From contig DASYJY010000089.1 of the NCBI GenBank assembly GCA_035995985.1, forward strand, positions 4,477 to 68,476: 64,000 nucleotides of DNA, written 5' to 3'. Positions within the stretch are counted from its first letter, which is position 1. Each line of letters starts with the position of its first letter. Below the pieces are notes generated by a model. That model worked only from the letters and a program-made list of their open reading frames with translations. It ran no database searches and was not told the origin of the DNA. The translations under genes were made by a program, and so were the position numbers. Of this stretch, positions 6,782 to 26,857 are shown piece after piece. Origin of the DNA: Thermoanaerobaculia bacterium. Its GTDB lineage: Bacteria; Acidobacteriota; Thermoanaerobaculia; Gp7-AA8.

Positions 6782-7531
6782 ATGGCTGACGAAAACGAAA
6801 GCGGGGCATCGCTTCTTGCGCGGCGCGAATATGCGCGCGCGGTTCCGCTCCTCAAACGCGATCTCGACAAGTACCAGTCCAATCCTCGCATCCGGCTGCA
6901 GTACGCCGACGCGCTGGCCGGTGCCGGCCAGCACGAAGAGGCGATCGCGCAGTACGAGCACACGGCGAAGTACTACGAGGACAACGGATTAACCGTGCAA
7001 GCCATCGCCGTCGCGAAGAAGGCGGAGAAGCTGCGCGGGCAGATCGCCGCTGCCGCGCCGCAGGAGGCGACGGCGGGGAAGAGCGATCCGCTGTTCACGC
7101 GTCCCGTGCCGAAGTCGCCGCTCTTCGAGGTGTTGAATGAGGAAGAGCGCGATGCGCTGGTGCGCGAGATGGAGCTCGAATCACACGACGAGGGGAGCGT
7201 CATCATCAGCGAAGGGCAGCCCGGCGCGTCGATGTACGTCATCGCCAGCGGCGAGGTGAAGGTCTTCACGAACGGCGCCGGAGGCTCCACGCTTTATCTC
7301 GCGCGGCTCGGCGAGGGCGATTTCTTCGGCGAGGTGAGCATGCTCACCGGCAAGCCGCGCACGGCCACCATCACCGCATCGCAGCGCACCGAACTGCTTC
7401 GCCTCGATAAAGAAAAACTCGATAACGCCCTGGCGACGTATCCCGGAATCCGCAACGTGCTCAACGACTTTTATCAACGCCGCGCCGAGCACACGGTCGA
7501 GGCGATGATCGACAGTTTGAAGAGAAAGTAG
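6782..7531 (+). CDS. Cyclic-nucleotide-binding domain protein with a TPR-like N-terminal region
   Basis: 249-aa ORF whose C-terminal half has the cNMP-binding signature GEGDFFGEVSMLTGKPRTATITA. Confidence 0.8.
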   Translation: MADENESGASLLARREYARAVPLLKRDLDKYQSNPRIRLQYADALAGAGQHEEAIAQYEHTAKYYEDNGLTVQAIAVAKKAEKLRGQIAAAAPQEATAGKSDPLFTRPVPKSPLFEVLNEEERDALVREMELESHDEGSVIISEGQPGASMYVIASGEVKVFTNGAGGSTLYLARLGEGDFFGEVSMLTGKPRTATITASQRTELLRLDKEKLDNALATYPGIRNVLNDFYQRRAEHTVEAMIDSLKRK

Positions 7532-7540
7532 GAGCACGCC

Positions 7541-8056
7541 TTGGCCGTTCTTCCCATCGTCAAATACGGCGATCCCGTTTTACGCAATCCGACGCAGCCG
7601 GTCGGCGACATCGACGCGGCGTTGCAGAAGCTGATCGACGACATGGTCGACACGATGTATGCCGCGCCCGGAGTCGGACTGGCTGCGAATCAGGTAGGCG
7701 TCGCGAAGCGGCTGGCGGTGATTGATCTGACGGTCGGCAAGAAGCCGGGCAACCTGCACGTCTTCATCAATCCCGAGCTCGTGGAGATGGAAGGGCAGAT
7801 CACGGAGGAAGAGGGATGCCTCTCGATTCCTGACTTCGTCGAAGACGTCACCCGGCCGGAGCGCGTGAAGGTCCGCTTCACCGATCGCAACGGACAGCAA
7901 CGCGAGCTTCGCGGCGAAGGACTGATGGCCCGCGCTCTCTGCCATGAAATCGATCACCTCAACGGTGGGCTGTACATCGACCACGTTCGCGGCTTCAAGA
8001 AGGACCGCATCCTGAAGAAGATTCAGAAGCTGGCAAAGTCGGGGATGTGGGGATAG
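7541..8056 (+). CDS. def: Peptide deformylase
   Basis: 171-aa ORF with the three deformylase motifs GVGLAANQVG, EGCLSIP and HEIDHLNG. TTG start. Confidence 0.93.
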   Translation: MAVLPIVKYGDPVLRNPTQPVGDIDAALQKLIDDMVDTMYAAPGVGLAANQVGVAKRLAVIDLTVGKKPGNLHVFINPELVEMEGQITEEEGCLSIPDFVEDVTRPERVKVRFTDRNGQQRELRGEGLMARALCHEIDHLNGGLYIDHVRGFKKDRILKKIQKLAKSGMWG

Positions 8057-9001
8057 CTACGGCGCGACGGCGATTCCCCACGGACCGTCCGGCACTTTGA
8101 TCGTGGCGGTGACGCGGCCGGATGCGGTATCGATCACCGATACGTCGTTGGACAACCCATTTGCGGTGTAGAGCGTGCGGCCATCGCGCGTGAGGTTGAT
8201 GCCCCACGGCCGATTTCCGACGGCGATGTATTGCAGGACGCGATTCGAGGCCGTGTCGATGACGGCGACGGCGTTGCCGCGGCCGGTCGCAGCGTAGAGC
8301 CGCTTGCCGTCCGGTGAGAGGACGACGCCGACCGGATGGTCGGCCGGCCGGAGTTTGATGTGAGCGACGGCGCGGTTCTTCTTCACGTCGACGACGTTGA
8401 TGCTCCCGCCGACTTCGGAGCTGACGTACGCGCGCACGCCGTCGCGAGCGAAGACGGCGGCGCGGGGACGCGCATCGACGAAGATGTTCGCGGTGACTGC
8501 GTTGTTCTTCGGATCGATGACCGTGACGGTGTTGCTCGTCTCCGCAGTGACGTAGATCAGCGTTCCGTCGTAGCTCGCCGCCACGCCCTCGGGTTCCGTG
8601 CCGGTGACGAGCGAAACGTTCCTTCCGTTGCCGATGTCGACGATCGACGCGGTGCCGGCGTCTTCGTTCGCCACGCAAAACCGCTTGCCGTCGGGCGTGA
8701 TGGCAATGCCCTCGGGATCGGTTCCCGCTTTGTAGCGGCGGATGATCGTCAGCGTTCTAGGATCGATGGCGACCACTCCGTCCGCGGTCTTCGAAAATTG
8801 TCCGCGAAAGTGGCTGACCGCGACGTAGAGCCGTTTGCCGTCGGGACTGAGGACGATTCCGCGCGGGCGCGTGCCGACGGCGATCGTTTTGATCGTGGAG
8901 CCGTCGATCATCGTCACGCTGCCGGCGCGTTCGCTGGTGACGAAGATTTTCGCGGCTTGGATCGGCAACGCGACGAGTGCGACGAAGAAGAATGCTTTCA
9001 T
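8057..9001 (-). CDS. YVTN-type beta-propeller protein of the kind associated with PQQ-dependent catabolism
   Basis: 314-aa ORF with a signal peptide and about seven repeats of the form G..P.G....PDGKRLYV.. . 4-nt overlap with the upstream cytochrome c gene. Confidence 0.7.
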   Translation of the reverse strand: MKAFFFVALVALPIQAAKIFVTSERAGSVTMIDGSTIKTIAVGTRPRGIVLSPDGKRLYVAVSHFRGQFSKTADGVVAIDPRTLTIIRRYKAGTDPEGIAITPDGKRFCVANEDAGTASIVDIGNGRNVSLVTGTEPEGVAASYDGTLIYVTAETSNTVTVIDPKNNAVTANIFVDARPRAAVFARDGVRAYVSSEVGGSINVVDVKKNRAVAHIKLRPADHPVGVVLSPDGKRLYAATGRGNAVAVIDTASNRVLQYIAVGNRPWGINLTRDGRTLYTANGLSNDVSVIDTASGRVTATIKVPDGPWGIAVAP

Positions 9002-9348
9002 TTCAACGTGTAGAGATACGCGACGATGTCACGCGCCTCATCCGGTTTCACGCCGAGGTTCGGCATGACGTTGTCGGGATTCGTCATCTGCGGATTCTGG
9101 ATGTACGCGATCATGTTTGGCTGCGAGTTGGGGAGCTTGGCGGCGATGATCTGACGCGAGGCGACGTGTTCGAGCGACGGACCGACCATTCCTTTTGCTC
9201 CGTCGATACCGGGGACGATGTGGCAGGAGTTGCAGCCGTACTGCTCGATGAGCTGCTTGCCGCGCTTCGCGTCTCCAACGACGGGCGCCGCGGCCTCGGG
9301 GCGCTTGCAGGCGGCGAGGAGCAAAATCAAAATCACGATTCGTTTCAC
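8998..9348 (-). CDS. Small class I c-type cytochrome (lipoprotein)
   Basis: 116-aa ORF with lipobox LAAC, heme motif CNSCH and a distal Met (NVMPN). GTG start overlaps the ctaG stop. Confidence 0.8.
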   Translation of the reverse strand: MKRIVILILLLAACKRPEAAAPVVGDAKRGKQLIEQYGCNSCHIVPGIDGAKGMVGPSLEHVASRQIIAAKLPNSQPNMIAYIQNPQMTNPDNVMPNLGVKPDEARDIVAYLYTLK

Positions 9349-10244
9349 GTTCGTTCCTTTCGCAGTGCGTCACTTGTGCCGAGGGCGACGCGGCGCTCGG
9401 CTTCCCCGAGCCAGGCGGCGAAAATCGCGATGCCGAGGATCGTGAACAAGACGCCGGCCGGAATCCACATGATCAGGCCGGCGAGTTGTTGATCCTCGAT
9501 GGCGTTCAAGCCCCAAGCCGCGGTGCGCGCGCCGTAGATCGGATACCACAGATGCGGCGCGAATGTAATGAGCGCGCCGAGGGCGCCGCTGTGGCCGGCG
9601 GTGGCGAAGACGTAGATCACCGCGGCGCCGTAGCCGAGGCGGCCGTAGCGTCCGTGCGTGAGCGACCACCAGAACATCGTTGCCGTGAGGAGGAAGCTGA
9701 TGTGCTGCATCGCGTGAATCCCGTCGTTGCGCAGCGTCGCTTCGTACCACGACGGGATGTGCCAGACCCACAGCGCGATGGCGTGGACGATCGTGACGAC
9801 GAGCGCGCCGGTGATCCAGTTCCAGGTCTGCGCGATCGGCGCGCGTTGGAAAAAGCGCCCGACCGGTACACGCCATCGTTGCGGCAAAGCCCAGAGAAAC
9901 GCGACGAGCGGACGTCCGAAGACGAGCAGCGGGGCGGCGACGATCATCAGCATTTCGTGTTGCGCCATGTGCGCGGAGAAAAGGATTTCGCCAAGCGCGT
10001 CGAGCGGCGAGACGAGCGCAATGACGAGCGCGATCCATCCGGCGGCGAAGGATGCGATCTGCCATTTGCGAATCCCTTTCATCCGCACGACGCCGATCGC
10101 GTACATCGCGCCGGTGATCGCAAGTGGGAGGATGACGAACGGTTCCCACGACCACCAGCGCATGAACGTGGACGGCTCGAGGTGATGGTGACCGGCGTGC
10201 GCGTATGCGTTGGCGGGAAGTAACAGCGCCGTGAGCACTGTCAT
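9345..10244 (-). CDS. ctaG: caa3-type cytochrome c oxidase assembly factor CtaG
   Basis: In-frame ATG at 10244 within the artefactual 660-aa ORF 9345..11327. Polytopic membrane protein with HMAQHEMLMIVAAPLLVFGRP and IHAMQHISF motifs typical of the Bacillus-type CtaG family. The start codon lies inside a repeat element. Confidence 0.78.
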   Translation of the reverse strand: MTVLTALLLPANAYAHAGHHHLEPSTFMRWWSWEPFVILPLAITGAMYAIGVVRMKGIRKWQIASFAAGWIALVIALVSPLDALGEILFSAHMAQHEMLMIVAAPLLVFGRPLVAFLWALPQRWRVPVGRFFQRAPIAQTWNWITGALVVTIVHAIALWVWHIPSWYEATLRNDGIHAMQHISFLLTATMFWWSLTHGRYGRLGYGAAVIYVFATAGHSGALGALITFAPHLWYPIYGARTAAWGLNAIEDQQLAGLIMWIPAGVLFTILGIAIFAAWLGEAERRVALGTSDALRKERT

Positions 10245-10428
10245 CCTGAGCCGCCGGAGCGACGGAGCCGAAGGCGCAGTCGCGGAGGACGGTCGAAGGA
10301 ACCCCTGATTGCTATCCCGGGTCGGGTGGTGGTCGCCGCCACCCGAATTACCAGACTGGGGGTCCTTCGACCGTCCTGCGGCGTTCCGCGCTTCGCGCTC
10401 CAACGCCTTCGGCGGCTCAGGATGACAG
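10238..10428. mobile_element. MITE/REP-like composite: two inverted ~70-bp GTCATCCTGAGC-type repeats flanking a ~50-bp core
   Basis: 10238-10305 and the reverse complement of 10358-10428 share the head CTGTCATCCTGAGCCGCCG and the tail GGACGGTCGAAGGA(A/C)CCCC. A third copy is at 14353-14423. No ORF for a transposase. Confidence 0.75.
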
Positions 10429-10432
10429 CGCG

Positions 10433-10774
10433 TCACTCGCAGGCTCCGAGGTACAAGTGCGGGATGGCCATGGCGACGATCGACATCGCGAACGCCGCGT
10501 TGAGTGTCAGTCCGCCGATGCCCATGAAACGCACGCGTCGCGTGTCTTCGCCGTTTTTCAATCCGCGCCACGATTCGAATGCGCCGAATGCGCAGAGCAG
10601 GAGTGCCATCGCGGTGATCAGCCAGAAAATCCACTCCGCTTTGTGATCGCAGATCCAGTCGATCATCGCGTACTTGGTCGTGAACGCCACCGCGAAGGCG
10701 AACGGGCTGCTGAGGATGCCGGTCCAGAGCTGCGGCGATGACGGTCGGATATCGAACGGCTTGGTCGTCTCCAT
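10433..10774 (-). CDS. Small integral membrane protein, possible oxidase subunit IV equivalent
   Basis: 113-aa ORF with about three hydrophobic helices. It starts 3 nt downstream of the ctaE stop and occupies the ctaF position of Bacillus-type caa3 operons. No motif-level support. Confidence 0.5.
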   Translation of the reverse strand: METTKPFDIRPSSPQLWTGILSSPFAFAVAFTTKYAMIDWICDHKAEWIFWLITAMALLLCAFGAFESWRGLKNGEDTRRVRFMGIGGLTLNAAFAMSIVAMAIPHLYLGACE

Positions 10775-10777
10775 CCG

Positions 10778-11395
10778 TCAGCTTCCTTTGCGCTGCATCC
10801 ACGGCTCGATGAAGATGATGAAGTAGAACGGCACCCACACCAGCGCGACGAAATACCAGTAGACGGCGGTGCAGCGGAAATCGAGCAGGTGCTTTTTCAC
10901 GACCGGCTTGAAGAGACTGTAGATGAACAGGAGCGCTGTCTCGCCGGTGGCCGCCACCATGTGCAATGTGTGCATGCCGATGATGACCCAGACCACCGAG
11001 CCGTATGCGTGAGAGCTCCACTTGTAGCCGAGGTTCGGGACGATGATCGCGTACTGGATGTAGAGGAAGACCAGTCCGACCGCGATGGAGATTGCCTGGC
11101 CGATGCGGATCGGTAGCATGTTCTTCGTGATCGATGCGCGGTCGATGACGAATGCCGGGATGCAACTGAGCAGCAGCATGACCGTGTTGATGGTCGGCAT
11201 CATCAGATCGGGTTTGGGGACGGTGCTCGGCGGCCAGTCCAGGTTCGTGCTGCGCAGGTAGAGGTACGTGGCCATGGCCATCGCGAACATCGTTCCTTCG
11301 ATGGCCAGCATGGCCAGGTTGCCCCACCAGATCAGCGCGCGGCTGTCCGCGGTGCCTTCAGTGAGCGCGGAGACGTCGAGCACGCGCTGCGTCAA
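10778..11395 (-). CDS. ctaE: Heme-copper oxidase subunit III
   Basis: 205-aa polytopic ORF (IWWGNLAMLAIEGTMFA..., HTLHMVAATGE, AVYWYFVALVW). 4-nt overlap with ctaD. Confidence 0.85.
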   Translation of the reverse strand: MTQRVLDVSALTEGTADSRALIWWGNLAMLAIEGTMFAMAMATYLYLRSTNLDWPPSTVPKPDLMMPTINTVMLLLSCIPAFVIDRASITKNMLPIRIGQAISIAVGLVFLYIQYAIIVPNLGYKWSSHAYGSVVWVIIGMHTLHMVAATGETALLFIYSLFKPVVKKHLLDFRCTAVYWYFVALVWVPFYFIIFIEPWMQRKGS

Positions 11396-13359
11396 CGCAT
11401 CTCCTCTCGCGCCGGTTCAGGCATGCCGAGGTCGAGGCCACCGAGCTCACCGCGTTCGCGGAGGATGTGGTCGTGCAACTCTTCGCCGCTCGGCCAGAAC
11501 CAGCCAATGAGCGCGATGCCGCTGAGCACCGCGCCGATCGTGAACCACCAGGCAAAGAAGATGGCGCCCCACAATCCGATGCACATCGTGCTGGCGAGGA
11601 GGAACGGCCACAATGAATGCGCCGGCAATTGTTCGGTGTGATCCGGCTCCGCGTCGAGAACGTGTGTGATGAGGATTTCGCGGCGGTCGAAGCGCATGCC
11701 GGCGACGTACGGCTGATCGCGCGCCGCGTCCCAAACGGCGTTCAATCCGCTGACGGTCGGCACGTGCAGGTAGTTGTAAACCGGCGGCGGCGATGACAGC
11801 GACCACTCCAGCGTGTCGGCGTTCCACGGATTCGATCCTGCTTCGCGCCCGGAACCCCGGCTGATGAGAAAGTTGATGATCATCGTCAGCACCGACAGCG
11901 CCATGAAGACGGCGCCCGCCGAGGCCAGCACGTTCAGATTTCCCCATCGCATCCCGGGCTGGTATGTGTAGACGCGCCGAGGCATGCCGTACAGCCCGAG
12001 GATGTGCATCGGAAAAAACGTGACGTTGAAGCCGATCAGCAGGAGCCAGAAACTGATCTGCCCCATGACTTCGTTGTACATCCGGCCGGTCCATTTCGGG
12101 AACCAGAAGTGGAACGCGCCGAAGAGCGGGAAGAGCGCGCCGCCGATCAACACGTAGTGGAAGTGCGCGACGACGAAGTAGGTGTCGTGTACCTGCCAGT
12201 TGATCGGAATCGAGGCGAGCATGACGCCTGTCAATCCACCGACGATGAAGACGAGGAAGAAGCCGATCACGTACATCACCGGCGTGGCGATCCGGAATCG
12301 TCCCGACCAGATGGTCGAGATCCAGCAGAAGATCTGCACTCCCGTCGGGATGACGATCATGAGGCTGGCGGCCGTGAAAAAGCTCTCGCCGAGTTGGGGC
12401 AGGCCGGTCGCGAACATGTGATGCACCCAAACGCTGAAGCCGAGGAACGCGGTGATGACGAGCGTGGAGACCATCACTGTGTAGCCGAAGATTTTTCGCC
12501 CGGTGAAGGCGGTCAAAATCGAGCTGACAAACCCCAGCCCGGGAATGAAGATGATGTAGACCTCCGGATGCCCGAAGAACCAGAACATGTGCTGGTAAAA
12601 GAGCGGGTCGCCCCCCTCGGAACGATTGTAGAAATGCGTGCCGACCAGACGATCGAGAGAGAGGTAGCCGCTGGCGATCATGACCGCCGGCATCGCGAAC
12701 AGGATCATGAAGCTGACCACGATCATCGACCAGACGAACAGCGGGATGCGGTTGAGCGACATCCCCGGACAGCGTTGCTTGAATGTGGTGACTACCAATT
12801 CGACCGCGACGACCAGCCCCGAAATCTCGGTGAACGTGATCATCTGCGCCCACGTGTCGACGCCTTTGCCCGGCGAGTACTGCGGCCCGGCCAGCGGCAC
12901 GTAGGAGAACCAGCCGTCCTGCGGTGCGGCGTGAAGAAAGAACATGGTGTAGAGGAACAGCCCGCCGAACAGGTAGATGTAGTACCCGAAGGCGTTCAGT
13001 TTGGGGAAGGCGACGTTGTGCGTGCCTACCATCAGCGGCACGAGGTAGATGCCGAAGCCTTCCATGATCGGGACGGCGAAGAGAAACATCATCGTCGAGC
13101 CGTGCATGGTGAAGATCTGGTTGTACGCGTCCGGCCCGAGGAAGTGGTTCTCGGGTCGCAGGAGCTGGATGCGCATGAGCGCCGCTTCGACGCCGCCGGC
13201 GAGGAAGAAAAGAAACGCTGTGACGATGTAGCGGACCCCGATCTGTTTGTGGCCGGTTTCGCTGAGCCATCCGGTGACGCCGGGCCAGGAGGCCCAGGTT
13301 TTCTCCATGATCGCGCGCTCTTTGGCGAAGTCGGGCGGGGCGACGGCGAGCTCGGTCAT
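11392..13359 (-). CDS. ctaD: Cytochrome c oxidase subunit I
   Basis: 655-aa ORF with WFFGHPEVYIIFIPGLG, VWVHHMF and HFHYVLIGG heme/CuB ligand motifs. Confidence 0.95.
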   Translation of the reverse strand: MTELAVAPPDFAKERAIMEKTWASWPGVTGWLSETGHKQIGVRYIVTAFLFFLAGGVEAALMRIQLLRPENHFLGPDAYNQIFTMHGSTMMFLFAVPIMEGFGIYLVPLMVGTHNVAFPKLNAFGYYIYLFGGLFLYTMFFLHAAPQDGWFSYVPLAGPQYSPGKGVDTWAQMITFTEISGLVVAVELVVTTFKQRCPGMSLNRIPLFVWSMIVVSFMILFAMPAVMIASGYLSLDRLVGTHFYNRSEGGDPLFYQHMFWFFGHPEVYIIFIPGLGFVSSILTAFTGRKIFGYTVMVSTLVITAFLGFSVWVHHMFATGLPQLGESFFTAASLMIVIPTGVQIFCWISTIWSGRFRIATPVMYVIGFFLVFIVGGLTGVMLASIPINWQVHDTYFVVAHFHYVLIGGALFPLFGAFHFWFPKWTGRMYNEVMGQISFWLLLIGFNVTFFPMHILGLYGMPRRVYTYQPGMRWGNLNVLASAGAVFMALSVLTMIINFLISRGSGREAGSNPWNADTLEWSLSSPPPVYNYLHVPTVSGLNAVWDAARDQPYVAGMRFDRREILITHVLDAEPDHTEQLPAHSLWPFLLASTMCIGLWGAIFFAWWFTIGAVLSGIALIGWFWPSGEELHDHILRERGELGGLDLGMPEPAREEMR

Positions 13360-13384
13360 GATCGTGCTTCCGTCGTAGCGCCGC

Positions 13385-14359
13385 TCATTTCAGCGTCTCC
13401 AGATACGCGAGCAAGTCATTCATCTCCGATCCCGACAGCTGATTCGGAGGCATGAGCGTTCCCGGCTTGATCGCCGGCGCATTGGCGATCCATCCCGCCA
13501 GATTGCCGCGCGTGTTCAGCAGTTGTCCCGCGGCGAGCGTGGGGCGGCTGCGAAAGTGGGTGAGGTCGGGTCCGAGAGTGCCGTACGCGTCGAGGCCGAG
13601 GATGTTGTGGCACTTCGCGCACGGAGCGTTGAGGAAGACCTGCTGTCCGCGGAGTTGCGCAGGCGTCATCGGCGTCGGGGCGCCTTCGCCCATGTGCGAT
13701 TTCCATCGCGCGAATTCTTCCGGCGCTTCGGCCACGACCGTCAGCGCCATGTGGGCGTGCTGGTATCCGCAAAATTCGGCGCATTGACCGCGGTAGACGC
13801 CGGGCGTGTCGGCCTGAATCCAGAACTTGTTGACGCGTCCGGGGATGAGATCGCGCTTGCCGTGCAGGTTCGGAATCCAGAGCGAGTGGATGACGTCGCG
13901 CGTGTCGAGCCGCAGCAGAACCGGCGTGTGAATGGGGATGTGGATCTCGTTCGCGTCGTTGATCTGATTCGCCGGCGCGAGCGCGTCGGGATACTTCACC
14001 TCCCACCACCACTGATGCCCGGTGACCTCGATCTCCAGCTGCCGCGGATCATTTTTTCCGAACGTGCCGATGGCGTTTCCGGTGGCGACGCTGCTGAACA
14101 GGAGTCCGAACAGAGTGGCGATGGTGACCGCCGCACAGGTGCTGACGAAGATACCGAGGCGGCGATCGTGCGCGGGATCGTCGACCGCTTCCGCGCGGCG
14201 GCGGCCTCTCACTGCCGCGATGAAGAAGAAAGCGATCGTGATGATGTAGACGGCGACGCAGATCCAGAAGAAGACCCACCAGAGATGTTCGATGCTCGCC
14301 GCCTGCGGACCCGCGGAGTGAAGCGCGGATTGGACGGGAACGAGGGCGATGCCTGTCAT
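13385..14359 (-). CDS. ctaC: Cytochrome c oxidase subunit II with fused C-terminal cytochrome c domain (caa3 type)
   Basis: In-frame ATG at 14359. CuA motif CAEFCGYQHAHM, HSLWIPNLHGKRD, and a C-terminal heme motif CAKCH. The start codon lies inside repeat copy 14353-14423. Confidence 0.9.
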   Translation of the reverse strand: MTGIALVPVQSALHSAGPQAASIEHLWWVFFWICVAVYIITIAFFFIAAVRGRRRAEAVDDPAHDRRLGIFVSTCAAVTIATLFGLLFSSVATGNAIGTFGKNDPRQLEIEVTGHQWWWEVKYPDALAPANQINDANEIHIPIHTPVLLRLDTRDVIHSLWIPNLHGKRDLIPGRVNKFWIQADTPGVYRGQCAEFCGYQHAHMALTVVAEAPEEFARWKSHMGEGAPTPMTPAQLRGQQVFLNAPCAKCHNILGLDAYGTLGPDLTHFRSRPTLAAGQLLNTRGNLAGWIANAPAIKPGTLMPPNQLSGSEMNDLLAYLETLK

Positions 14360-14423
14360 CCTGAGCCGCCGGAGCCGCGTTGGCGCGAAGCGCAAACCGG
14401 CGCAGGACGGTCGAAGGACCCCC
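14353..14423. repeat. Third copy of the GTCATCCTGAGC-type ~70-bp repeat
   Basis: CTGTCATCCTGAGCCGCCGGAGCCGCGTTGGCGCGAAGCGC...GGACGGTCGAAGGACCCCC closely matches the reverse complement of 10358-10428. Confidence 0.8.
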
Positions 14424-14472
14424 AGCCGATTGCCGGGGCGGGCGGAGCGCGGAGGCGCGCTCGACGCTCGTC

Positions 14473-14967
14473 TCACTTCGGCTCCTCCGCGCGTCTCGGC
14501 ATCATCTCTTCCGATCGCGGCGACATCGCGCCCTTCGGCTCGAAGCCGCCGATGGCGCGGACGTACGTCGTTAGCTGCCAGATCTGGAAGACGGGTATGT
14601 GCCCTCCGTACGATGGCATCCCGTTCGGACGTCCCTCGGAAATCGTCGTGAAGATGTTGACCGGCGAGCTGCCGTAGATCCACTCCGCGTCCATCAGCGG
14701 CGGACCGATTCCGCCGCCGCCGTGGAAGTGGCATCCGGAACAGTTGTACTGCTCGAAGAGCTGCTGCCCCTGGCTGATCGCGTATGCGTTTCCTTCGTAC
14801 GGATTGTTGATGCCGGTCGCGGCGAGCTGCTTCGGTCCGGGCTGCAGGTCGCCCATGCGCATCGGATTGGGACGCTGTGATTCATCGGCGGTCGGTGTCA
14901 GAGGACGCCGCTCGCGATGGCAGGCGAACAGCGCGAGGATGGCCAGTAAGGCCAGTGGTCGCTTCAT
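14473..14967 (-). CDS. Monoheme c-type cytochrome, XoxG/cytochrome cL-like by position
   Basis: In-frame ATG at 14967 (164 aa). Signal peptide with LFAC lipobox and heme motif CSGCH. 4-nt overlap with xoxJ. Confidence 0.72.
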   Translation of the reverse strand: MKRPLALLAILALFACHRERRPLTPTADESQRPNPMRMGDLQPGPKQLAATGINNPYEGNAYAISQGQQLFEQYNCSGCHFHGGGGIGPPLMDAEWIYGSSPVNIFTTISEGRPNGMPSYGGHIPVFQIWQLTTYVRAIGGFEPKGAMSPRSEEMMPRRAEEPK

Positions 14968-15803
14968 ACGCGTGGCACTCCGTAGCGATCGAGAATCCGT
15001 TCGATGTCGGTGCGGCGTTTTTCGATTTCGTGATCGAGCTGATCGCGCAGCGCGTTGTCGCCGCGGCGGACGCCCATCGAAATGTCGAAGACGAAGGGGA
15101 GGAAGGGGAGATCGATCTGCGGCGAGACGGGGACGATGTCGAGCGCGACCTTCTGCTGCCGCGCGAAGTAACCCGCCTGTGGTCCCCACACCACGGCGAC
15201 GTCGACCTTGCCGTTCGCGACGGCATCGACGATGTCGCGTCCCGGTGCCTGGCTGCGATAGTCGCCATAGACGGTGTAGCCGGCGACGTTGTCGATGATG
15301 CCGCGCTTGGCCAGCGCGTGCGCGGGCGGCGAGTTGACGTGATCGTTGCCGATCATCTGGACGCCGACCTTCAACGTCTTCAGTCGCGGATCATCGAACG
15401 AGGTGATGTTGAGATGACGGTCGGAGCGGGAGACGAAGACGTAGGTCGAGCGGTAGTACGACTGCGTCGGAAGGGCCTGATCGAAATTGCTGGGTATGCC
15501 CATGATCACGTCGCAATCGCCATGGCGCAGCGTCTGGCGAACGAATCCGCGGCGCTGCGGCCACCAGGTGTAGGCGACCCGCGCGTTCAGGTCGCGCGCG
15601 ACGAGTGACGCGATTTCATTCTCGAATCCCTGCTGCTTTTCGTTGGAGTACGGGAGATTGTTTGGGTCTGCGCAGACGCGGAGCACTCGATCGGGGGTGG
15701 GGGGTCGGGGGTCGGAGGTCGTAGATTTCGCGCAAGAACAGCACAGCGCCAGAAGCACCGCTCCGACACCCGACACCCGACAAACGACTCCCGCGTATCT
15801 CAT
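14964..15803 (-). CDS. xoxJ: MxaJ/XoxJ-like periplasmic binding protein associated with quinoprotein dehydrogenases
   Basis: 279-aa ORF with a type-2 periplasmic binding fold pattern (LRVCADPNNLPYS, CDVIMGIP, VAVVWGPQAGY). ATGA overlap with the xoxF stop. Confidence 0.78.
   Translation of the reverse strand: MRYAGVVCRVSGVGAVLLALCCSCAKSTTSDPRPPTPDRVLRVCADPNNLPYSNEKQQGFENEIASLVARDLNARVAYTWWPQRRGFVRQTLRHGDCDVIMGIPSNFDQALPTQSYYRSTYVFVSRSDRHLNITSFDDPRLKTLKVGVQMIGNDHVNSPPAHALAKRGIIDNVAGYTVYGDYRSQAPGRDIVDAVANGKVDVAVVWGPQAGYFARQQKVALDIVPVSPQIDLPFLPFVFDISMGVRRGDNALRDQLDHEIEKRRTDIERILDRYGVPRV
15692..15786. repeat. Inverted repeat embedded in the 5' coding region of xoxJ
   Basis: GTCGGGGGTCGGAG (15705-15718) pairs with CTCCGACACCCGAC (15761-15774) with one mismatch. 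The arms are G-run and C-run rich like the intergenic repeats elsewhere in the window. Confidence 0.6.
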
Positions 15804-17677
15804 GGCAGTGCAAACGTGTAGAGCATCCCGCCCTTGGTCGTTGCCTTCGGCAGGTCGGACATCGCGTTGACGAATCCGAGGGCGGCGGTGCCGTCGTGCG
15901 GGTCGAGTTGGCCGGCGACGATTGCGCCGGCCCAGCCGCCGACTCCGGAGAGGATCGAGACGTACTGTTTTCCGTCAGGGCCCTGGTAGGTCACCGGCTG
16001 CCCGATGATCCCGGAGCCGCATTTGAACTGCCAGAGGAGCTGGCCGGAGCGCGCGTCGATCGCTTTGAACCACCCTTCCATCGTGCCGTAGAAGACGACG
16101 TTGCCGGCGGTGGCGACGGCACCGCTCCAGACCGGGAAGTTCTCTTTGATCGTCCAGATCTTCTTGCCGGCCACCGGATCCCACGCATCGAACTCGCCGC
16201 GATGTCCGCCCGGACCCGCGTACATCTTCACATTCGCGCCGACGTACGGCGTTCCGGCGATGTAATTGGCTTGGACACCTTCCGCGTCCTCGCAGAGGTT
16301 CGCGTGCGGGATGTAGAGCAGCTTCGTGACCGGCGAGTACGCGGAGGGCTCCCAATCCTTCGCGCCCGGCGCGGGAGGACAGATCATGCGCGTCACGCGT
16401 CCAAAGCCGGGCGCCTTTTCCTGCACCGGTTTCAGGCGGCCGGTCTTCAGGTCCACGCCGCTGCTGGTGGTGATGAACGCGAACGGATTCGCCGACAGCA
16501 CCTGGCCCGTAGTGCGGTCGAGGACGTAGACGTAGCCGTTGCGCTCGGGGCGGACGAGTACCTTGCGGACCTGGCCGTTGATCGGCAGATCGAGCAGGAC
16601 CAGCTCGTTGATGCCGTCGTGATCGTAGAGATCGTGCGGGCTCCACTGATACGCCCACACTGCCTCGCCCGTGTCGGGCCGGCGCGCGAACATCCCGCAC
16701 GTCCACTTGTTGTCGCCGGGACGCTGTTCCGGATTCCACGGGCCGGGATTGCCGGTGCCGTAGTAAATGAGATCGAGCGCGGGGTCGTACGAGATCCAGC
16801 CCCAGGTCGTGCCGCCGCCGATCTTCCACGCATCGGGCGGCCAGCTCTTCACGCCGAGGTCCTGACCTTTGTCGGAGTCGTAGAAAGGATGGAAGCCGGG
16901 GCCGATCAGGCAGTCGTTGTCGGGACCGGTGCTGTACGCCTTCCAGACCTGTTTGCCGGTTTCGCTGTCGAGCGCCGTGAGTGATCCGCGAACGCCGAAC
17001 TCGCCGCCGCTGTCGCCGACGAGGACCTTGTTCTTCACTACCAGCGGCGCCATCGTGATCGATTCGCCGCGATTGATGTCGGCCACCTGCGACACCCACA
17101 CTTCATCGCCGGTCTGCGCGTTGACTGCGGCCGTTTTGCCGTCGAGCGTGTTGAAAAAGATCTTGCCATTCGCGTAGACGCAGCCGCGGTTGACCCAATC
17201 GCAGCAAGCCACGCCCTTCGCGGAGTTGTTCAGGTCCTTCGGCTTGTAGCTCCACTTCGCCGGCGCGCCCGGTTGCGTCAGATCGAGCGCGTAGAGCGTG
17301 TTCGGAAACGGCGTGACGATGTACATCGTGTTGTTCACGACGATCGGCGCCGCTTCTTCGCCGCGGTCGCTGCCGGTGGAGAAGGTCCACGCCACTTTGA
17401 GGTTCTTCACGTTGGCGGTGTTAATCTGATTGAGGCCGGAGAAACGCGTCGACGCGTAGTTCTTCGCGGGCATGATCCATTGCCCGTCTTCGCCCTCAAG
17501 CTTGACCAGATCCGTCTTCTCGGAGGGGTTGGAGGAGTAGCGCTGGAGGAAGGGGAAGGTCTTGTTGTCCGGCGCCTTCGACTTGCACCCGACGCAAATC
17601 AGCACGACCAACAAAATCGCATGGCCCCCCAAGCATCGTGGCCGCATCTGAACGCGACCGGTTGCTCCCAGCATCAC
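15800..17677 (-). CDS. xoxF: PQQ-dependent methanol/ethanol-family dehydrogenase, XoxF-like (lanthanide-type signature)
   Basis: 625-aa ORF with vicinal Cys motif VACCDWVNRG, GDSGGEFGVRG and GTGNPGPWN. HDLYDHDG has Asp-x-Asp (codons at 16616-16624) where Ca-type MxaF has Asp-x-Ala. The start could instead be the internal Met at 17647. Confidence 0.88.
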   Translation of the reverse strand: MMLGATGRVQMRPRCLGGHAILLVVLICVGCKSKAPDNKTFPFLQRYSSNPSEKTDLVKLEGEDGQWIMPAKNYASTRFSGLNQINTANVKNLKVAWTFSTGSDRGEEAAPIVVNNTMYIVTPFPNTLYALDLTQPGAPAKWSYKPKDLNNSAKGVACCDWVNRGCVYANGKIFFNTLDGKTAAVNAQTGDEVWVSQVADINRGESITMAPLVVKNKVLVGDSGGEFGVRGSLTALDSETGKQVWKAYSTGPDNDCLIGPGFHPFYDSDKGQDLGVKSWPPDAWKIGGGTTWGWISYDPALDLIYYGTGNPGPWNPEQRPGDNKWTCGMFARRPDTGEAVWAYQWSPHDLYDHDGINELVLLDLPINGQVRKVLVRPERNGYVYVLDRTTGQVLSANPFAFITTSSGVDLKTGRLKPVQEKAPGFGRVTRMICPPAPGAKDWEPSAYSPVTKLLYIPHANLCEDAEGVQANYIAGTPYVGANVKMYAGPGGHRGEFDAWDPVAGKKIWTIKENFPVWSGAVATAGNVVFYGTMEGWFKAIDARSGQLLWQFKCGSGIIGQPVTYQGPDGKQYVSILSGVGGWAGAIVAGQLDPHDGTAALGFVNAMSDLPKATTKGGMLYTFALP

Positions 17678-17848
17678 TCCGCGCTCCTTTCCCTGTCCTC
17701 TGTTTTCGCCCCGAATTGCAGAAGCCGCGCCAAACTGGAGCGTACGGGAGCAGACCCCGTTGCGCGTCCGGTTTGCTTCTCGCGCAACGCGGTTAGAGCG
17801 ATCGTCGGCACGCGCGGCGTGAACTCAAACGCCGTGGAGCTGCCGGTG

Positions 17849-18448
17849 ATGACGATGACGCGAGGCACGCTCGTTGCGCCTTGCAGTTGCGTGCCTCCGG
17901 CTGGCTTCACATACGTCGACGACTTTCTGACCGCGGATCAGGAGCAGGCCGTGATCGCCGAAGTTGAGCGGCTTCCCTTCCACGAAGTGCGCATGCATGG
18001 CGTCGTCGCGCGGCGCACCGTCATCCACTTTGGATTCGATTACGACTACGAGGGATGGTCGATCCGCGAAACCGATCCACCGCCGCCGTTTCTCGTCGAG
18101 CTTCGCGACCGCGCTGCGGCGATTGCGAACATCGATCCGCTCGTGCTCGAACAATTTCTGATCGCGCGCTATCCGCCCGGCGCGACGATCGGCTGGCATC
18201 GCGACGCCCCCATGTTCGGATCGCCGGTCATCGGCATTTCGCTCGGCGCCGCCGCCCGCATGCGTTTTCGCCGAAAGACCGCCGATGGTTTCGAGACGGA
18301 CGTGCAACTGCTGCAACCGCGATCGCTCTACATCCTCGCCGGCGCGGCGCGCACGGTTTGGCAGCACCACATTCCGGCCGCGAAGGAGCTGCGCTACTCA
18401 ATTTCGATGCGGACTGTCATCTCGAAATCGCGACTGCGTCGCGCGTAG
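17849..18448 (+). CDS. AlkB-like Fe(II)/2-oxoglutarate-dependent dioxygenase
   Basis: In-frame ATG at 17849 in ORF 17273..18448. HxD motif IGWHRDAP, distal His in VWQHHI, and RYSISMR resembling the AlkB RxSxTxR motif. Confidence 0.72.
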   Translation: MTMTRGTLVAPCSCVPPAGFTYVDDFLTADQEQAVIAEVERLPFHEVRMHGVVARRTVIHFGFDYDYEGWSIRETDPPPPFLVELRDRAAAIANIDPLVLEQFLIARYPPGATIGWHRDAPMFGSPVIGISLGAAARMRFRRKTADGFETDVQLLQPRSLYILAGAARTVWQHHIPAAKELRYSISMRTVISKSRLRRA

Positions 18449-18477
18449 CGGGTTAGCAATTTCAGGCGCTGTACCTT

Positions 18478-18585
18478 GCCACAGCACAGACAAGAGTGTC
18501 TGTGCCACACCAACTCGCGCACGCATCACCATTCATCCGAGCTCGGCAGGATTTTTGTGGCACAGACACGCTGGTCTGTGCCGGT
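18478..18585. repeat. Two oppositely oriented TGTGGCACAGACAC-type hairpins
   Basis: Hairpin stems GCACAGAC/GTCTGTGC at 18484-18505 and GGCACAGAC/GTCTGTGCC at 18559-18582. The 14-mer TGTGGCACAGACAC occurs at 18557 (plus strand), 18496-18509 (reverse complement) and 21107. Confidence 0.75.
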
Positions 18586-18605
18586 GCTCGGGAGCAGTGA
18601 GAAAT

Positions 18606-19475
18606 TTACGCATCCATCCCCTTCCCACCCGCCACCACCTGCGCGTGATTGATCGCCGCCACCAGCGCTACGCCGCCGATCGTGTTGCCGAGCAGCGCGG
18701 GAACGATGAAGCTGTCGACGCACTGCACCCACGAGATGCGGCCGATGAATGCGAGGTACATCGTCTCGGTCGCGCCGGCGATCACGTGCGAGAAGCCGCC
18801 GAGGCCGACCAGGTAGGTGATGATGACGATCACCCACACCCGCGCTGATTCGGCGAACGGCAGCAGCCAGACCATCATCGCGATCAGCCAGCCGCCGAAG
18901 ATGCCGCGGAGGAGCGTCGTGGCGAAGGCGGCGCGCGTTGCTTCGTCGCCGAGGGCCGTGAAGGCGCCGGTTATGTTGCTGTCGAATGCAGTCGTTTTGG
19001 CGAGCACGAGCGCGAAGAGAAACGCGCCGGCGAGGTTGGCGAGAAACACCGTCACCCAGAGCCGCGCCACATTTCGCAGCGTCGCTCCATCGCGTTTCAC
19101 GAGCAGCGGCAGGATCACCGTCAGCGTGTTTTCGGTGAAGAGCTGCTGCCTGCCGAGGACCACGATCAGGAAGCCGACGCTGTAGCCGAAGTTCACGATG
19201 AGCGGACGCCAGCTCGTGTCCGGAATGTGCGAGCGGAGCAGCGCCTGCGTCACGAACGAGAAGCCCATCGAGAGCCCGGCGGCGAGCCCCGACCACATCA
19301 GCGCGGACGTTGGCCGTTTCAGCTCTTCGTCCCCCTCGGCACGGATGGCGTGATAGACCACCGCGCCCGAGGGCGACGTCCGCTCCTCGGCCTCTTCTTT
19401 TTCCTTTTCCTCGGCCGCCATTGGCGTCGCGCCGTGCAAGAACTCAACCGTTTTGGCAAAGGGATTGCTTTTCAT
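18606..19475 (-). CDS. Formate/nitrite transporter (FNT) family channel
   Basis: 289-aa polytopic ORF. GRQQLFTENT and FIVPALLGNTIGG resemble the FNT constriction motifs. Acidic N-terminal extension. Confidence 0.75.
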   Translation of the reverse strand: MKSNPFAKTVEFLHGATPMAAEEKEKEEAEERTSPSGAVVYHAIRAEGDEELKRPTSALMWSGLAAGLSMGFSFVTQALLRSHIPDTSWRPLIVNFGYSVGFLIVVLGRQQLFTENTLTVILPLLVKRDGATLRNVARLWVTVFLANLAGAFLFALVLAKTTAFDSNITGAFTALGDEATRAAFATTLLRGIFGGWLIAMMVWLLPFAESARVWVIVIITYLVGLGGFSHVIAGATETMYLAFIGRISWVQCVDSFIVPALLGNTIGGVALVAAINHAQVVAGGKGMDA

Positions 19476-19522
19476 CAGACGAAAAATCTGACGCGGTTGA
19501 CCACGAAGCAGGGGAGGCTAAC

Positions 19523-19762
19523 TTGCAATTTACGATCGAGAGCCGGCAGCTTACGAACGAGTACACGCATCGCCCGTCATTCGACGCAGAAACGAGGCAG
19601 ACGTTCATCGAAGCCGGAACGCCGGATGACGCAATCGGCGAGTTTGTGCGGCAAAACGAGTCGGAGCTGGTCAGCGTGACCAGGCCCGTTCGCGGGGAGG
19701 AGTCGATTGCCACCGTGAAGAAGAACGACTCGGTGTTTCTCGTGCGCGTCTACGCGGCGTAG
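19523..19762 (+). CDS. Hypothetical small protein
   Basis: 79-aa reading frame from a TTG preceded by GGGGAGG. No recognisable motifs. The upstream part of ORF 19310..19762 is antisense to the FNT gene. Confidence 0.35.
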   Translation: MQFTIESRQLTNEYTHRPSFDAETRQTFIEAGTPDDAIGEFVRQNESELVSVTRPVRGEESIATVKKNDSVFLVRVYAA

Positions 19763-19813
19763 AACATGGCTTTGCGTTAGACGCAAACGAGGCGTGCAAT
19801 CGCGTTTCATTGG

Positions 19814-20284
19814 ATGTATCGTGTCTCAACCCAGCGCATCGTCCCCATGTCCCGCTCGGATCCTCCGTTCGCTGCACGTCAGGTGATCGTCGTCGACGAT
19901 GATCCGGCACTGCGAACTCTCTTCATCGCCATGTTGGAGCGGAAAGGCTTCACCGTCGACGTCGCGCCCGACGGCCGCGCCGCGTACGACCAGATCAGCC
20001 GCAACGCGTACGCGGCGATCCTGCTCGACCTGATGATGCCGGACGTGAACGGCTTCGAGCTGCTGGAACGGCTGGCGCGCGAATGTCCCGCACTGCTTTC
20101 ACGCGTGATCGTGATGACCGGCGCCAGCCGCCGCGTCGTGCAGACGCTCGACACGACGTCGATCTGGGGCCTGATCCGCAAACCGTTCGACATCGACGAG
20201 CTGGTGAACGCCGTCACCGCCTGCAGCGACGGCCGGCCGCGCGTGCCGCCGCCGGTATCGCGCGCGCCGAAGCAGTTGATGTGA
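19814..20284 (+). CDS. Stand-alone CheY-like response regulator receiver
   Basis: 156-aa ORF with acidic pocket VVDDDP, phospho-acceptor context ILLDLMMPDVNG, VIVMTG and IRKPF. No output domain. The start may be the Met at 19847. Confidence 0.85.
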   Translation: MYRVSTQRIVPMSRSDPPFAARQVIVVDDDPALRTLFIAMLERKGFTVDVAPDGRAAYDQISRNAYAAILLDLMMPDVNGFELLERLARECPALLSRVIVMTGASRRVVQTLDTTSIWGLIRKPFDIDELVNAVTACSDGRPRVPPPVSRAPKQLM

Positions 20285-20368: not shown

Positions 20369-21091
20369 ATGAGCGCGCTCTACGCCCTCGCGGCATTCGC
20401 GATGACCCTTGCCGGCGGTGCGTTCGCGTTCCGCTACCAGCGCTATCTCCTCTACATCATGGCCTTCTCCTCGGGGCTGCTGATTGGCGTCGCGTTTCTC
20501 GATCTCATCCCCGAGGTTGCCGCGCTGGCGCAGCAGCATGCGATTGACATCCGGTCGCTGATGTTCACCGTCATCGCCGGATTTCTGGCCATCTTCCTGC
20601 TCGAGAAGCTAACCATCATCCATGGTGAAAAGCAGCACGACGCGCCGGGACATCATCACAACGTCGGACTGGTCGGTGCGATCGGACTCTCGTTTCACAG
20701 CTTCCTCGACGGACTGGCCATCGGCGTCGGATTCAAAGCGGGGACGCAGGTCGGATTGATCGTGCTGCTGGCTGTCGTCGCGCACGATTTCGCCGACGGC
20801 TTGAACACTGTCACCTTCATGCTGGCCACACGCAATAGCCGCTGGCGCACCGGCGCGCTGCTGGTCATCGACGCCAGCGCGCCGGTCCTCGGCGCATTGT
20901 GCGCGGGCGTGTTGAACATCGCGCCGCGTCTGCTCGCCTTCCAACTATCGTTCTTCGCGGGCTTCCTTCTTTACCTCGGCGCGAGCGATCTCCTGCCGCA
21001 GGTGCATGCGAAGACGCGCGGGGCGCTGATCGCTGCGACGATTGCCGGCGTGGCGATGGCGGGGCTGCTCGTCTACGCGCTGCAGGTATGA
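20369..21091 (+). CDS. ZIP-family divalent metal transporter
   Basis: 240-aa polytopic ORF with a His-rich loop (PGHHHN) and the motifs HSFLDGLAIG and AHDFADGL. Confidence 0.85.
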   Translation: MSALYALAAFAMTLAGGAFAFRYQRYLLYIMAFSSGLLIGVAFLDLIPEVAALAQQHAIDIRSLMFTVIAGFLAIFLLEKLTIIHGEKQHDAPGHHHNVGLVGAIGLSFHSFLDGLAIGVGFKAGTQVGLIVLLAVVAHDFADGLNTVTFMLATRNSRWRTGALLVIDASAPVLGALCAGVLNIAPRLLAFQLSFFAGFLLYLGASDLLPQVHAKTRGALIAATIAGVAMAGLLVYALQV

Positions 21092-25870: not shown

Positions 25871-26857
25871 TCACTTCGCGTCGGGGAACGTCACGACCTT
25901 GTTCTCGATCGGCTTGACCGTCTTCAGGTAGTCGTAAATCGAGCCGAGGTCGTTTTCCGTTATGCCGGAGAAGGCAATCCACGGCATGACCGTGTTGTGG
26001 CCGGCCGGAGCATCAGGTGCGCTGTTCGCGTCCATCGACGCGTACGCCTTGAAGCGGCCGATGAACTCTTCCTTCGTCGCGTGCGACATGTACGAACCGG
26101 CGGGCGTCAGGTTCGCCGTGAAATTGCGGCCCCACGGCCCCTTCATTTCCCATCCACCGGCGAACGGCTTGTCCGCGACGAGCGCGTTGTGATCGTCGTG
26201 CGGCGTGTGGCATTCGTAGCAGCCGCCGATCGTGGTCAGGTACTTGCCGTACGCGACGCTGTCGTGCGGATCGGGCGACTTCACCGCGCCCTCGACCGGC
26301 TTCGGCGCGAACTTGATCATCAGGTTGACCGGAAAATCGATGTGCTTCGCCGGAACTCCGCTGTGAATCGGCTTCAGCGTCCGCAGGTAGACGACCACCG
26401 ACTTCACGTCCTCGTCGCTCATGCTGCGGAAGTGCTCGTACGGCATCATCGGGAAGAGCGCCTCGCCCTTGTTGTCGATGCCTTCGCGGACGGCGCGGAT
26501 GATTTCTCCGTCGGTCCACTTGCCGAGTCCGAATTCCGAGTCCGCGGTGATGTTCTGCGCGGCTACGACACCGGGAAATCCGATGTTCTTGTCGAAGATC
26601 ATCCCGCCTCGTCCCTCGGTTCCCGGCTTCACCGGCACGCCAAACTTGACGACGTGATCGGAATGGCAATCGAGACACGGCGCGACATGCCCGACCAGGT
26701 ACTTCCCTCGGGCCATCCGCTCCGGGGTGGCCTGAATCTTCTCCGCGGACGCGGGCTGCGACACCGGTTTCCTCGCCATCAGCCAGATCACTCCGCACGC
26801 GATGAGCGCGACGGCGACCAACACAACTCCGCCAACGATCTTCAAAAAGGTCTTCAT
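25871..26857 (-). CDS. Membrane-anchored diheme c-type cytochrome
   Basis: 328-aa ORF with an N-terminal TM helix and two heme motifs, CLDCH and CYECH. Confidence 0.8.
   Translation of the reverse strand: MKTFLKIVGGVVLVAVALIACGVIWLMARKPVSQPASAEKIQATPERMARGKYLVGHVAPCLDCHSDHVVKFGVPVKPGTEGRGGMIFDKNIGFPGVVAAQNITADSEFGLGKWTDGEIIRAVREGIDNKGEALFPMMPYEHFRSMSDEDVKSVVVYLRTLKPIHSGVPAKHIDFPVNLMIKFAPKPVEGAVKSPDPHDSVAYGKYLTTIGGCYECHTPHDDHNALVADKPFAGGWEMKGPWGRNFTANLTPAGSYMSHATKEEFIGRFKAYASMDANSAPDAPAGHNTVMPWIAFSGITENDLGSIYDYLKTVKPIENKVVTFPDAK

Follow-up and report, generated by a model that had tools for sequence, protein, structure and literature searches.

A string of genes on the minus strand of a 64,000-nucleotide (nt) stretch of contig DASYJY010000089.1, from a Thermoanaerobaculia bacterium, combines a predicted XoxF-type dehydrogenase dependent on pyrroloquinoline quinone (PQQ) with a complete set of core terminal oxidase genes. 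We refer to the whole stretch as the window; the string under study occupies positions 8057–17677. On the basis of open reading frame (ORF) lists, their translations and Pfam and NCBIfam identities, it consists of ten consecutive genes in the order xoxF, xoxJ, a cytochrome c gene, coxII (with a fused cytochrome c), coxI, coxIII, a gene for a 113-amino-acid (aa) membrane protein, ctaG, a second cytochrome c gene and a gene for a YVTN β-propeller. A sequence-only reading of the same DNA had spoken of eleven genes and ten junctions, although its own list held ten names; recomputed from the coordinates, the junctions number nine. Its gene identities all proved correct in Pfam and NCBIfam, and its spacings were reproduced. 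Five junctions are 4-nt overlaps (xoxF/xoxJ, xoxJ/cytochrome c, coxI/coxIII, ctaG/cytochrome c and cytochrome c/YVTN) and two are short gaps of 3 nt (coxIII/113-aa gene) and 25 nt (coxII/coxI). As that reading had also stated, there are only two larger gaps, 14360–14472 (113 nt; cytochrome c/coxII) and 10245–10432 (188 nt; 113-aa gene/ctaG), and both contain one palindromic repeat.

The dehydrogenase passes, over the whole protein, the cut-off of TIGR03075, the methanol/ethanol family of PQQ-dependent dehydrogenases (Table 1). Among solved structures it is closest to XoxF of Methylacidiphilum fumariolicum SolV (4MAE; 707 bits, about 56% identity), a member of the XoxF2 clade, ahead of XoxF1 (573 bits), XoxF5 (566 bits) and MxaF (about 557 down to 464 bits). 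Ethanol dehydrogenases reach about 340 bits, and the protein groups with the methanol dehydrogenases; a position outside the methanol/ethanol clades, which the sequence-only reading had named as a refutation, is not what these scores show. We took as diagnostic of XoxF-type enzymes, in SolV numbering, the lanthanide ligand Asp301 together with Glu172, Asn256, Asp299 and the vicinal Cys103–Cys104. All of 115 homologues share C148/C149, E216, N300, D342, the lanthanide-specific D344 and R369 with the window protein, and by these residues the enzyme is predicted to be a lanthanide-dependent XoxF-type methanol dehydrogenase. Translation probably begins at the ATG at 17674, kept in two related loci (L001 and L002); the N terminus that follows (about 17580–17674) resembles a lipoprotein signal (…LLVVLICVGC), and XoxF probably carries a signal peptide of the lipoprotein type.

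The proteins that would serve the dehydrogenase are of matching kinds. XoxJ, a periplasmic binding-protein-like accessory protein, has XoxJ 6ONP as its best solved structure (E = 3e-49). The first cytochrome (14473–14967) is distantly related to CcoP domains and to two structures of cytochrome cL, 2D0W and 2C8S (E = 7e-10 to 2e-7); we call it XoxG-like for where it lies and the class it belongs to, without assigning it to the family, and presume that it is the direct electron acceptor of XoxF. It has a lipobox (LFAC), found in 93 of 98 homologues. The second cytochrome (8998–9348) carries the lipobox LAAC and is most similar, among solved structures, to mitochondrial-type cytochromes c. In 28 of 38 loci a homologue is encoded no more than 600 nt after ctaG, and the protein is a candidate analogue of cytochrome cH in the path from the cL-like cytochrome to the oxidase. 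The N termini of XoxJ, of the second cytochrome and of most XoxF proteins end in a lipobox-like Cys, and with lipoboxes on both cytochromes, XoxJ and many XoxF proteins, a membrane-tethered chain would fit. The passage of electrons from methanol dehydrogenase (MDH) through cytochromes cL and cH to an aa3 oxidase is established (Anthony's methanol oxidase scheme). Because the gene identities match, the four redox components of the string mirror this textbook chain.

The oxidase can be classified from its subunits. Judged by eye, CoxII begins with two hydrophobic helices; it contains a CuA site (H…CAEFCGYQHAHM) and ends in a cytochrome c domain (CAKCH; PF00034 at residues 237–324), the fusion of which makes it a caa3-type subunit II; with both the CuA motif and a C-terminal CxxCH in CoxII, the enzyme is predicted to be a caa3-type oxidase. 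CoxI is an A-family heme–copper oxidase subunit, which passes TIGR02891 and conserves H264, H313, H314, H399, H401, Y268 and E266, with all six His ligands and the GHPEVY motif, including its A1-type Glu, present. It continues into a C-terminal extension of about 115 aa, with two hydrophobic helices by eye and a weak PF12270 match. CtaG is of the Bacillus type but scores far below the narrower Bacillus equivalog TIGR02737 (55 versus 279).

The linkage of these genes recurs widely. A XoxF scan with one genome per species gave 290 relatives, of which the best 80 (65–95% identity) were taken with 10-kb flanks; loci with enough downstream DNA were counted as informative. coxI lies on the same strand and at most 5 kb downstream of xoxF in 58 of the 62 informative species-level loci, and the genes are colinear in the order xoxF–xoxJ–cytochrome c–coxII–coxI–coxIII–ctaG in 48 of 52. 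Carriers include Thermoanaerobaculia, Blastocatellia/Pyrinomonadaceae, Terriglobales, Bryobacteraceae, Gemmatimonadaceae, Longimicrobiaceae, Binatia and Chelativorans sp. J32, such that the linkage spans Acidobacteriota, Gemmatimonadota, Binatia and some Alphaproteobacteria; two alphaproteobacterial loci (L076 and L078) keep it in a rearranged order, with the oxidase upstream. For the reverse test, CoxI was searched against metagenome contigs. XoxF is present in 28 of the 29 informative metagenome loci with a CoxI of at least 54% identity, and lies upstream in none of the seven loci in which CoxI falls below 54%. Estimated over about 100 loci, the median junction gaps range from −17 to +41 nt. 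Conservation of the arrangement in relatives, which the sequence-only reading had proposed to survey, is thus seen in both directions and across phyla, and by these counts the xox–cox linkage is not chance. That reading had also seen the oxidase as embedded in a PQQ island, with genes of this kind on both sides. The xox–cox side of this claim is general; a YVTN gene follows downstream on the same strand in only 17 of the 42 fully covered loci, so embedding on both sides is a feature of the lineage.

These patterns bear on whether the oxidase is a general aa3/caa3 enzyme for all cytochrome c donors, which the xox genes merely adjoin, with no dedicated chain. The oxidase part does have the generic Bacillus-like order ctaC-D-E-(small protein)-ctaG, distant CoxI members of the Gln type described below sit in generic contexts (in L156, beside a Rieske protein), and there is no second oxidase in the window to compare it with. 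On the other hand, the linkage is kept in at least four phyla and in two gene orders, CoxI relatives of at least 54% identity are almost exclusively XoxF-linked, PQQ-associated genes lie on both sides in the lineage of the window, and the junctions are operon-like. We regard a general oxidase as improbable.

The neighbourhood matches the published XoxF3 systems, which include cox genes, ctaG, a hypothetical protein of about 110 aa, a cytochrome c and a propeller (PMC10875860). The XoxF3 label used here comes from this match and from inference, the nearest solved structure being a XoxF2 enzyme at about 56% identity. We consider it likely that the string is a XoxF3-type methanol-oxidation operon, in which a lanthanide- and PQQ-dependent methanol (alcohol) dehydrogenase is encoded together with its own respiratory branch to O2. 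In such a branch XoxF, aided by XoxJ, would oxidize methanol, and possibly formaldehyde, at the outer face of the cytoplasmic membrane. Electrons would pass to the lipid-anchored cL-like cytochrome in the XoxG position, then probably to the small c2-type lipoprotein cytochrome, and from there into CoxII, through its cytochrome c domain and CuA, and on to heme a and the heme a3–CuB centre of CoxI, where O2 would be reduced. CtaG would supply CuB, the 113-aa protein with its two Cys residues would be an extra subunit or assembly factor of the oxidase, and the YVTN propeller, a homologue of PedA2, would be an accessory protein. The ten genes would most likely form a single transcript, and the repeat hairpins may tune segment stability or ctaG translation.

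Several observations weigh against this interpretation. The cytochrome at 14473–14967 scores 39.8 bits against the MoxG equivalog TIGR03872, far under the cut-off of 147.8. Two Phenylobacterium loci have a close XoxF and no oxidase within 10 kb. Among the window ORFs scanned with Pfam there are no pqq, ctaA or ctaB genes. The claim of a self-contained chain from alcohol through cytochrome c to O2 therefore stands for the structural genes, on sequence and comparative support, and does not extend to heme A and PQQ synthesis, for which no genes were found in the window. CoxI lacks canonical channel residues, so the oxidase cannot be taken to have standard energetics or even standard activity, and the two gaps with repeats could mark breaks between transcription units. 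A XoxF3 of Methylocella silvestris is barely expressed and does not respond to lanthanides (PMC9291206). A second expression study of a proteobacterial XoxF3, in Methylosinus trichosporium OB3b, found it to be induced by cerium (PMC12482762). Neither report mentions an oxidase. XoxF3 systems lack experimental study, and no XoxF3 enzyme has been biochemically characterized (PMC10875860).

This last point also leaves room for a dehydrogenase whose substrate is not methanol but, for example, another alcohol, an aldehyde or formaldehyde alone, in which case the system would be a general periplasmic alcohol oxidase. Such a substrate would agree with the lack of genes for one-carbon (C1) assimilation or formaldehyde oxidation among the Pfam-scanned window ORFs, and with the occurrence of YVTN and XoxJ-type families alongside ethanol and phenylethanol dehydrogenases (TIGR03866 and TIGR03871 descriptions; PedA2). 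It accords poorly with the XoxF scores, which are far higher for methanol dehydrogenases than for ethanol dehydrogenases, and with the formate/nitrite transporter homologues near the cluster in 20 of 160 loci, which fit C1 oxidation to formate. A non-methanol substrate seems to us unlikely.

The CoxI proteins of this linkage depart from canonical oxidases at two channel positions. In the alignment with Mycobacterium smegmatis CtaD (PTGIK and GAPD), the window protein has Gln342 (PTGVQ) in place of the K-channel Lys and Asn115 (GTHN) in place of the D-channel entrance Asp, and neither canonical residue is present in it. We take these positions to be those of bovine K319 (PTGVK) and D91 (GAPD). 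Gln occupies the K-channel position in 135 of 137 aligned CoxI relatives, and all metal ligands, the cross-linked Tyr and the Glu of GHPEV are retained; Asn occupies the D-channel entrance in 74 of the 88 XoxF-linked relatives of at least 54% identity. A second XoxF-linked oxidase lineage (L076, L078, L142, L143, L147, L148, L150, L151 and L152) has CoxI proteins 45–47% identical to that of the window and the order coxI–coxIII–cytochrome c–xoxF, with xoxF in all nine loci that have sufficient downstream DNA. Its CoxI keeps Asp at the D-channel entrance, has Trp instead of the D-channel Glu (GHPWV) and again has Gln in place of the K-channel Lys. More distant Gln-type oxidases (L140, L156 and L157) lie in generic contexts, which rules out that oxidases of this type are always tied to periplasmic dehydrogenases and makes Gln a lineage trait. 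The changes in the D pathway follow XoxF linkage. In Escherichia coli bo3, the same Asp-to-Asn substitution at the D-channel entrance abolishes pumping. Canonical K-channels have been lost repeatedly in family A oxidases (PMC8239418).

Between coxIII and ctaG lies the 113-aa membrane protein, which has three hydrophobic helices by eye and matches no Pfam or PDB family. A similar ORF occupies this position in 87 of the 89 loci with coxIII and ctaG calls, although three of these look wrong-frame. In the alignment of the family (A1), only Cys42 and Cys112 are invariant besides Met1; Cys42 follows the first predicted helix and Cys112 stands at the C terminus. From hydropathy judged by eye and the positive-inside rule, we infer that both face the periplasm. 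The protein resembles ctaF in position and size only, and an identity as subunit IV (CtaF/CyoD/QoxD, COX4_pro) was rejected, as scans of 30 members gave no consistent Pfam match and a profile search found nothing in the PDB. A conserved hypothetical protein of about 110–130 aa between CoxIII and CtaG has been described, with a reported ‘vesicle-transport-like’ fold similarity (PMC10875860). We consider the 113-aa protein a candidate extra oxidase subunit or copper/assembly factor.

Taken together, Asn in the first lineage, the Trp of GHPWV in the second and Gln in both suggest, tentatively, that XoxF3-linked oxidases are specialized A-family enzymes, possibly non-pumping or alternatively gated. 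The same channel residues, together with the lipid anchors on XoxF, XoxJ and the cytochromes and the small protein with its two Cys residues, lead to the speculative idea of a tethered ‘methanol oxidase’ supercomplex with unusual energetics. We found no paper that describes such a complex.

The palindromic repeat (GTCATCCTGAGCCGCCGGAG) in the two large gaps is a side feature of the string. It has the character of a miniature inverted-repeat transposable element or repetitive extragenic palindrome, with the ends TGTCATCCTGAGC…, and is present in three copies in the window, compared with 0.01 expected. Gap 14360–14472 has a single copy and gap 10245–10432 an inverted pair, and the start codons (ATG) of coxII and ctaG are each supplied by a repeat end. 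As RNA, the inverted pair folds into a hairpin of about 195 nt (minimum free energy, −144.3 kcal/mol; z = −12.7) with base pairs over the ctaG AUG. Gap 14360–14472 does not fold above shuffles (z = −0.3), which rules it out as a structured RNA, and no Rfam match was found at E values up to 1 over 7500–19800, so the repeat was also rejected as a known RNA family. The repeat is also found at the cytochrome c/coxII junction in L001, L006, L081, L082 and L129 and at the 113-aa gene/ctaG junction in L001, L003, L081, L082, L129 and L137. Several close relatives thus have it at both junctions, with variable copy number, and it is absent in distant relatives.

The position of the repeats raises the alternative that there are three transcription units, xoxF to the cL-like cytochrome gene, coxII to the 113-aa gene, and ctaG to the YVTN gene, coupled only by co-regulation. 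The repeat-filled gaps are the sole junctions longer than 25 nt, the hairpin of gap 10245–10432 is very stable, and cytochrome c–coxII is the loosest core junction across loci, with spacing estimated at 41 nt in the median and 190 nt at the 90th percentile. On the other side, the repeats are lineage-specific insertions, and relatives without them have short gaps; neither gap yielded promoter- or terminator-like sites, and the hairpin has no U-tract. In the scan for sigma-70 promoters and intrinsic terminators, no promoter-like sites were found and terminator-like sites did not exceed chance, a result that is uninformative for this phylum; as the scan is weak for Acidobacteria, this evidence is soft either way. 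We hold three separate units to be doubtful and a single transcript the most likely arrangement.

Table 1 Features of the gene string and its upstream neighbours (positions in the window)
Feature	Positions	Strand	Evidence or remark
YVTN β-propeller, seven-bladed	8057–9001	−	TIGR02276 repeats, 179; TIGR03866, 273 versus cut-off 287.3
Small mitochondrial/c2-type cytochrome c lipoprotein	8998–9348	−	PF00034
CtaG, Bacillus-type caa3_CtaG, not Cox11	9345–10244	−	PF09678, 191.6 bits versus gathering 27.7
Inverted repeat pair	10235–10431		113-aa gene/ctaG gap
113-aa membrane protein	10433–10774	−	Without family
CoxIII, short, 205 aa	10778–11395	−	PF00510, E = 1.3e-12
CoxI	11392–13359	−	TIGR02891, 684.3 versus cut-off 670.75
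CoxII with fused cytochrome c	13385–14359	−	TIGR02866, 159.8 versus 147.7; PF00116 and PF00034
Single repeat copy	14353–14425		Cytochrome c/coxII gap
cL-like class I cytochrome c lipoprotein	14473–14967	−	PF13442 and PF00034
XoxJ	14964–15803	−	TIGR03871, 315.8 versus cut-off 212.15
XoxF	15800–17677	−	TIGR03075, 652.7 bits versus cut-off 480.05
AlkB-like 2-oxoglutarate–Fe(II) oxygenase ORF	17273–18448	+	Pfam domain at about 18026–18388
Formate/nitrite transporter	18606–19475	−	PF01226; upstream of xoxF
Single-domain response regulator	19814–20284	+	Upstream
ZIP-family metal transporter	20369–21091	+	Upstream

The genes that flank the string are unrelated housekeeping genes. At the YVTN end, the propeller is PedA2-like and a candidate member of the ‘PQQ-dependent catabolism-associated’ kind, slightly under the TIGR03866 cut-off, with an ordinary signal peptide. 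The plus-strand def gene (7541–8056) converges on its minus-strand gene, and because the two stop codons abut at 8056/8057, no intergenic base is left for a terminator. Beyond def follow a cNMP-binding protein, TPR proteins, a BamD-like gene, rpe, a PASTA protein and Lon.

Upstream of xoxF lie an AlkB-like ORF on the plus strand, a formate/nitrite transporter, a response regulator and a ZIP transporter. The AlkB-like ORF, between the transporter gene and xoxF, is present in L002 and absent from L001, in which the response regulator gene is directly upstream of xoxF. In Pyrinomonadaceae (for example, L015 and L016), the formate/nitrite transporter gene is on the same strand, directly after the second cytochrome; its recurrence may reflect the handling of formate after C1 oxidation. 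The ZIP gene is kept upstream of xoxF in 24 loci of the clade of the window (72–98% identity). Farther away, a 328-aa protein (25871–26857, minus strand) with a weak cytochrome c domain has the same relative position in L001, L003, L004 and L005, with 69–91% identity.

XoxF3 was the commonest methanol dehydrogenase type in the granite and soil metagenomes of PMC10875860 (340 of 411 sequences). If the oxidase is indeed dedicated, many Acidobacteria and Gemmatimonadota would be able to oxidize methanol, or volatile alcohols related to it, directly with O2 by way of a short branch that depends on lanthanides, which would be relevant to methanol and lanthanide cycling in soil. This locus adds a further example, quantitative two-way support for the synteny and residue-level features of the oxidase that can be tested. 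Chelativorans sp. J32 (L080), which is recorded as a strain and not as a metagenome-assembled genome, shares this gene order and is a possible host for experiments.

The sequence-only reading had implied that an oxidase within a xox cluster is unusual. The arrangement is already known, because Voutsinos et al. (2024, BMC Biol; PMC10875860) describe the cluster for XoxF3 systems, including the protein of about 110 aa and the propeller, and assign all of their acidobacterial XoxF systems to XoxF3. A review by Keltjens et al. (2014), as cited there, had earlier noted that cox and ctaG genes belong to some xoxF3 operons. Beyond PMC10875860 and its preprint, we found no other reports of xoxF–oxidase operons or expression data for them. 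The published XoxF3 clusters of Acidobacteria, Gemmatimonadetes and Verrucomicrobia have the same component list as the window. The lineage of the window differs in its palindromic repeats at two junctions, and PMC10875860 highlights NRAMP for other clades where this lineage has a ZIP transporter upstream. That paper does not discuss the channel residues, lipid anchors or Cys pair, and a search of its text for ‘proton’ or ‘ZIP’ returned nothing. As far as we could find, the Gln and Asn channel residues of CoxI, the invariant Cys pair and the lipid anchors are unpublished; the residue-level oddities of the linked oxidases might be the sole new part.

Known systems share one or another part of the proposed chain. 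The SolV enzyme (4MAE) has in common with the window XoxF all of the lanthanide and PQQ ligands checked, but belongs to another clade and host, and the window protein has a predicted lipoprotein N terminus. The classical chain of Methylobacterium and Paracoccus, with MxaFI or XoxF, has the same four-step electron path and protein classes; there, cytochrome cH and the oxidase are encoded elsewhere and shared with other donors, whereas the window has all components in one string and lipoprotein cytochromes. The caa3 operon of Bacillus subtilis has the order ctaCDEF–ctaG. The window follows this order (subunit II with cytochrome c, I, III, small protein, PF09678 CtaG), although its small protein is not recognizable as CtaF/COX4_pro, its CoxI has Gln and Asn, and no ctaA or ctaB is nearby. 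In the ped cluster of Pseudomonas putida (PedH/PedE, PedF and PedA1A2BC), a lanthanide PQQ alcohol dehydrogenase is likewise accompanied by a periplasmic binding protein and by the propeller PedA2, part of a transporter that lanthanide-dependent growth requires (PMC6839425). That propeller lies in an ABC-transporter operon and the cluster has no oxidase, whereas the window propeller has no adjoining ABC transporter genes. The rus operon of Acidithiobacillus ferrooxidans (cyc2–cyc1–coxBACD–rus; cited in PMC8239418) embodies the same concept, a substrate-specific periplasmic donor system and a dedicated aa3-type oxidase in one operon, with different donors, Fe(II) and rusticyanin.

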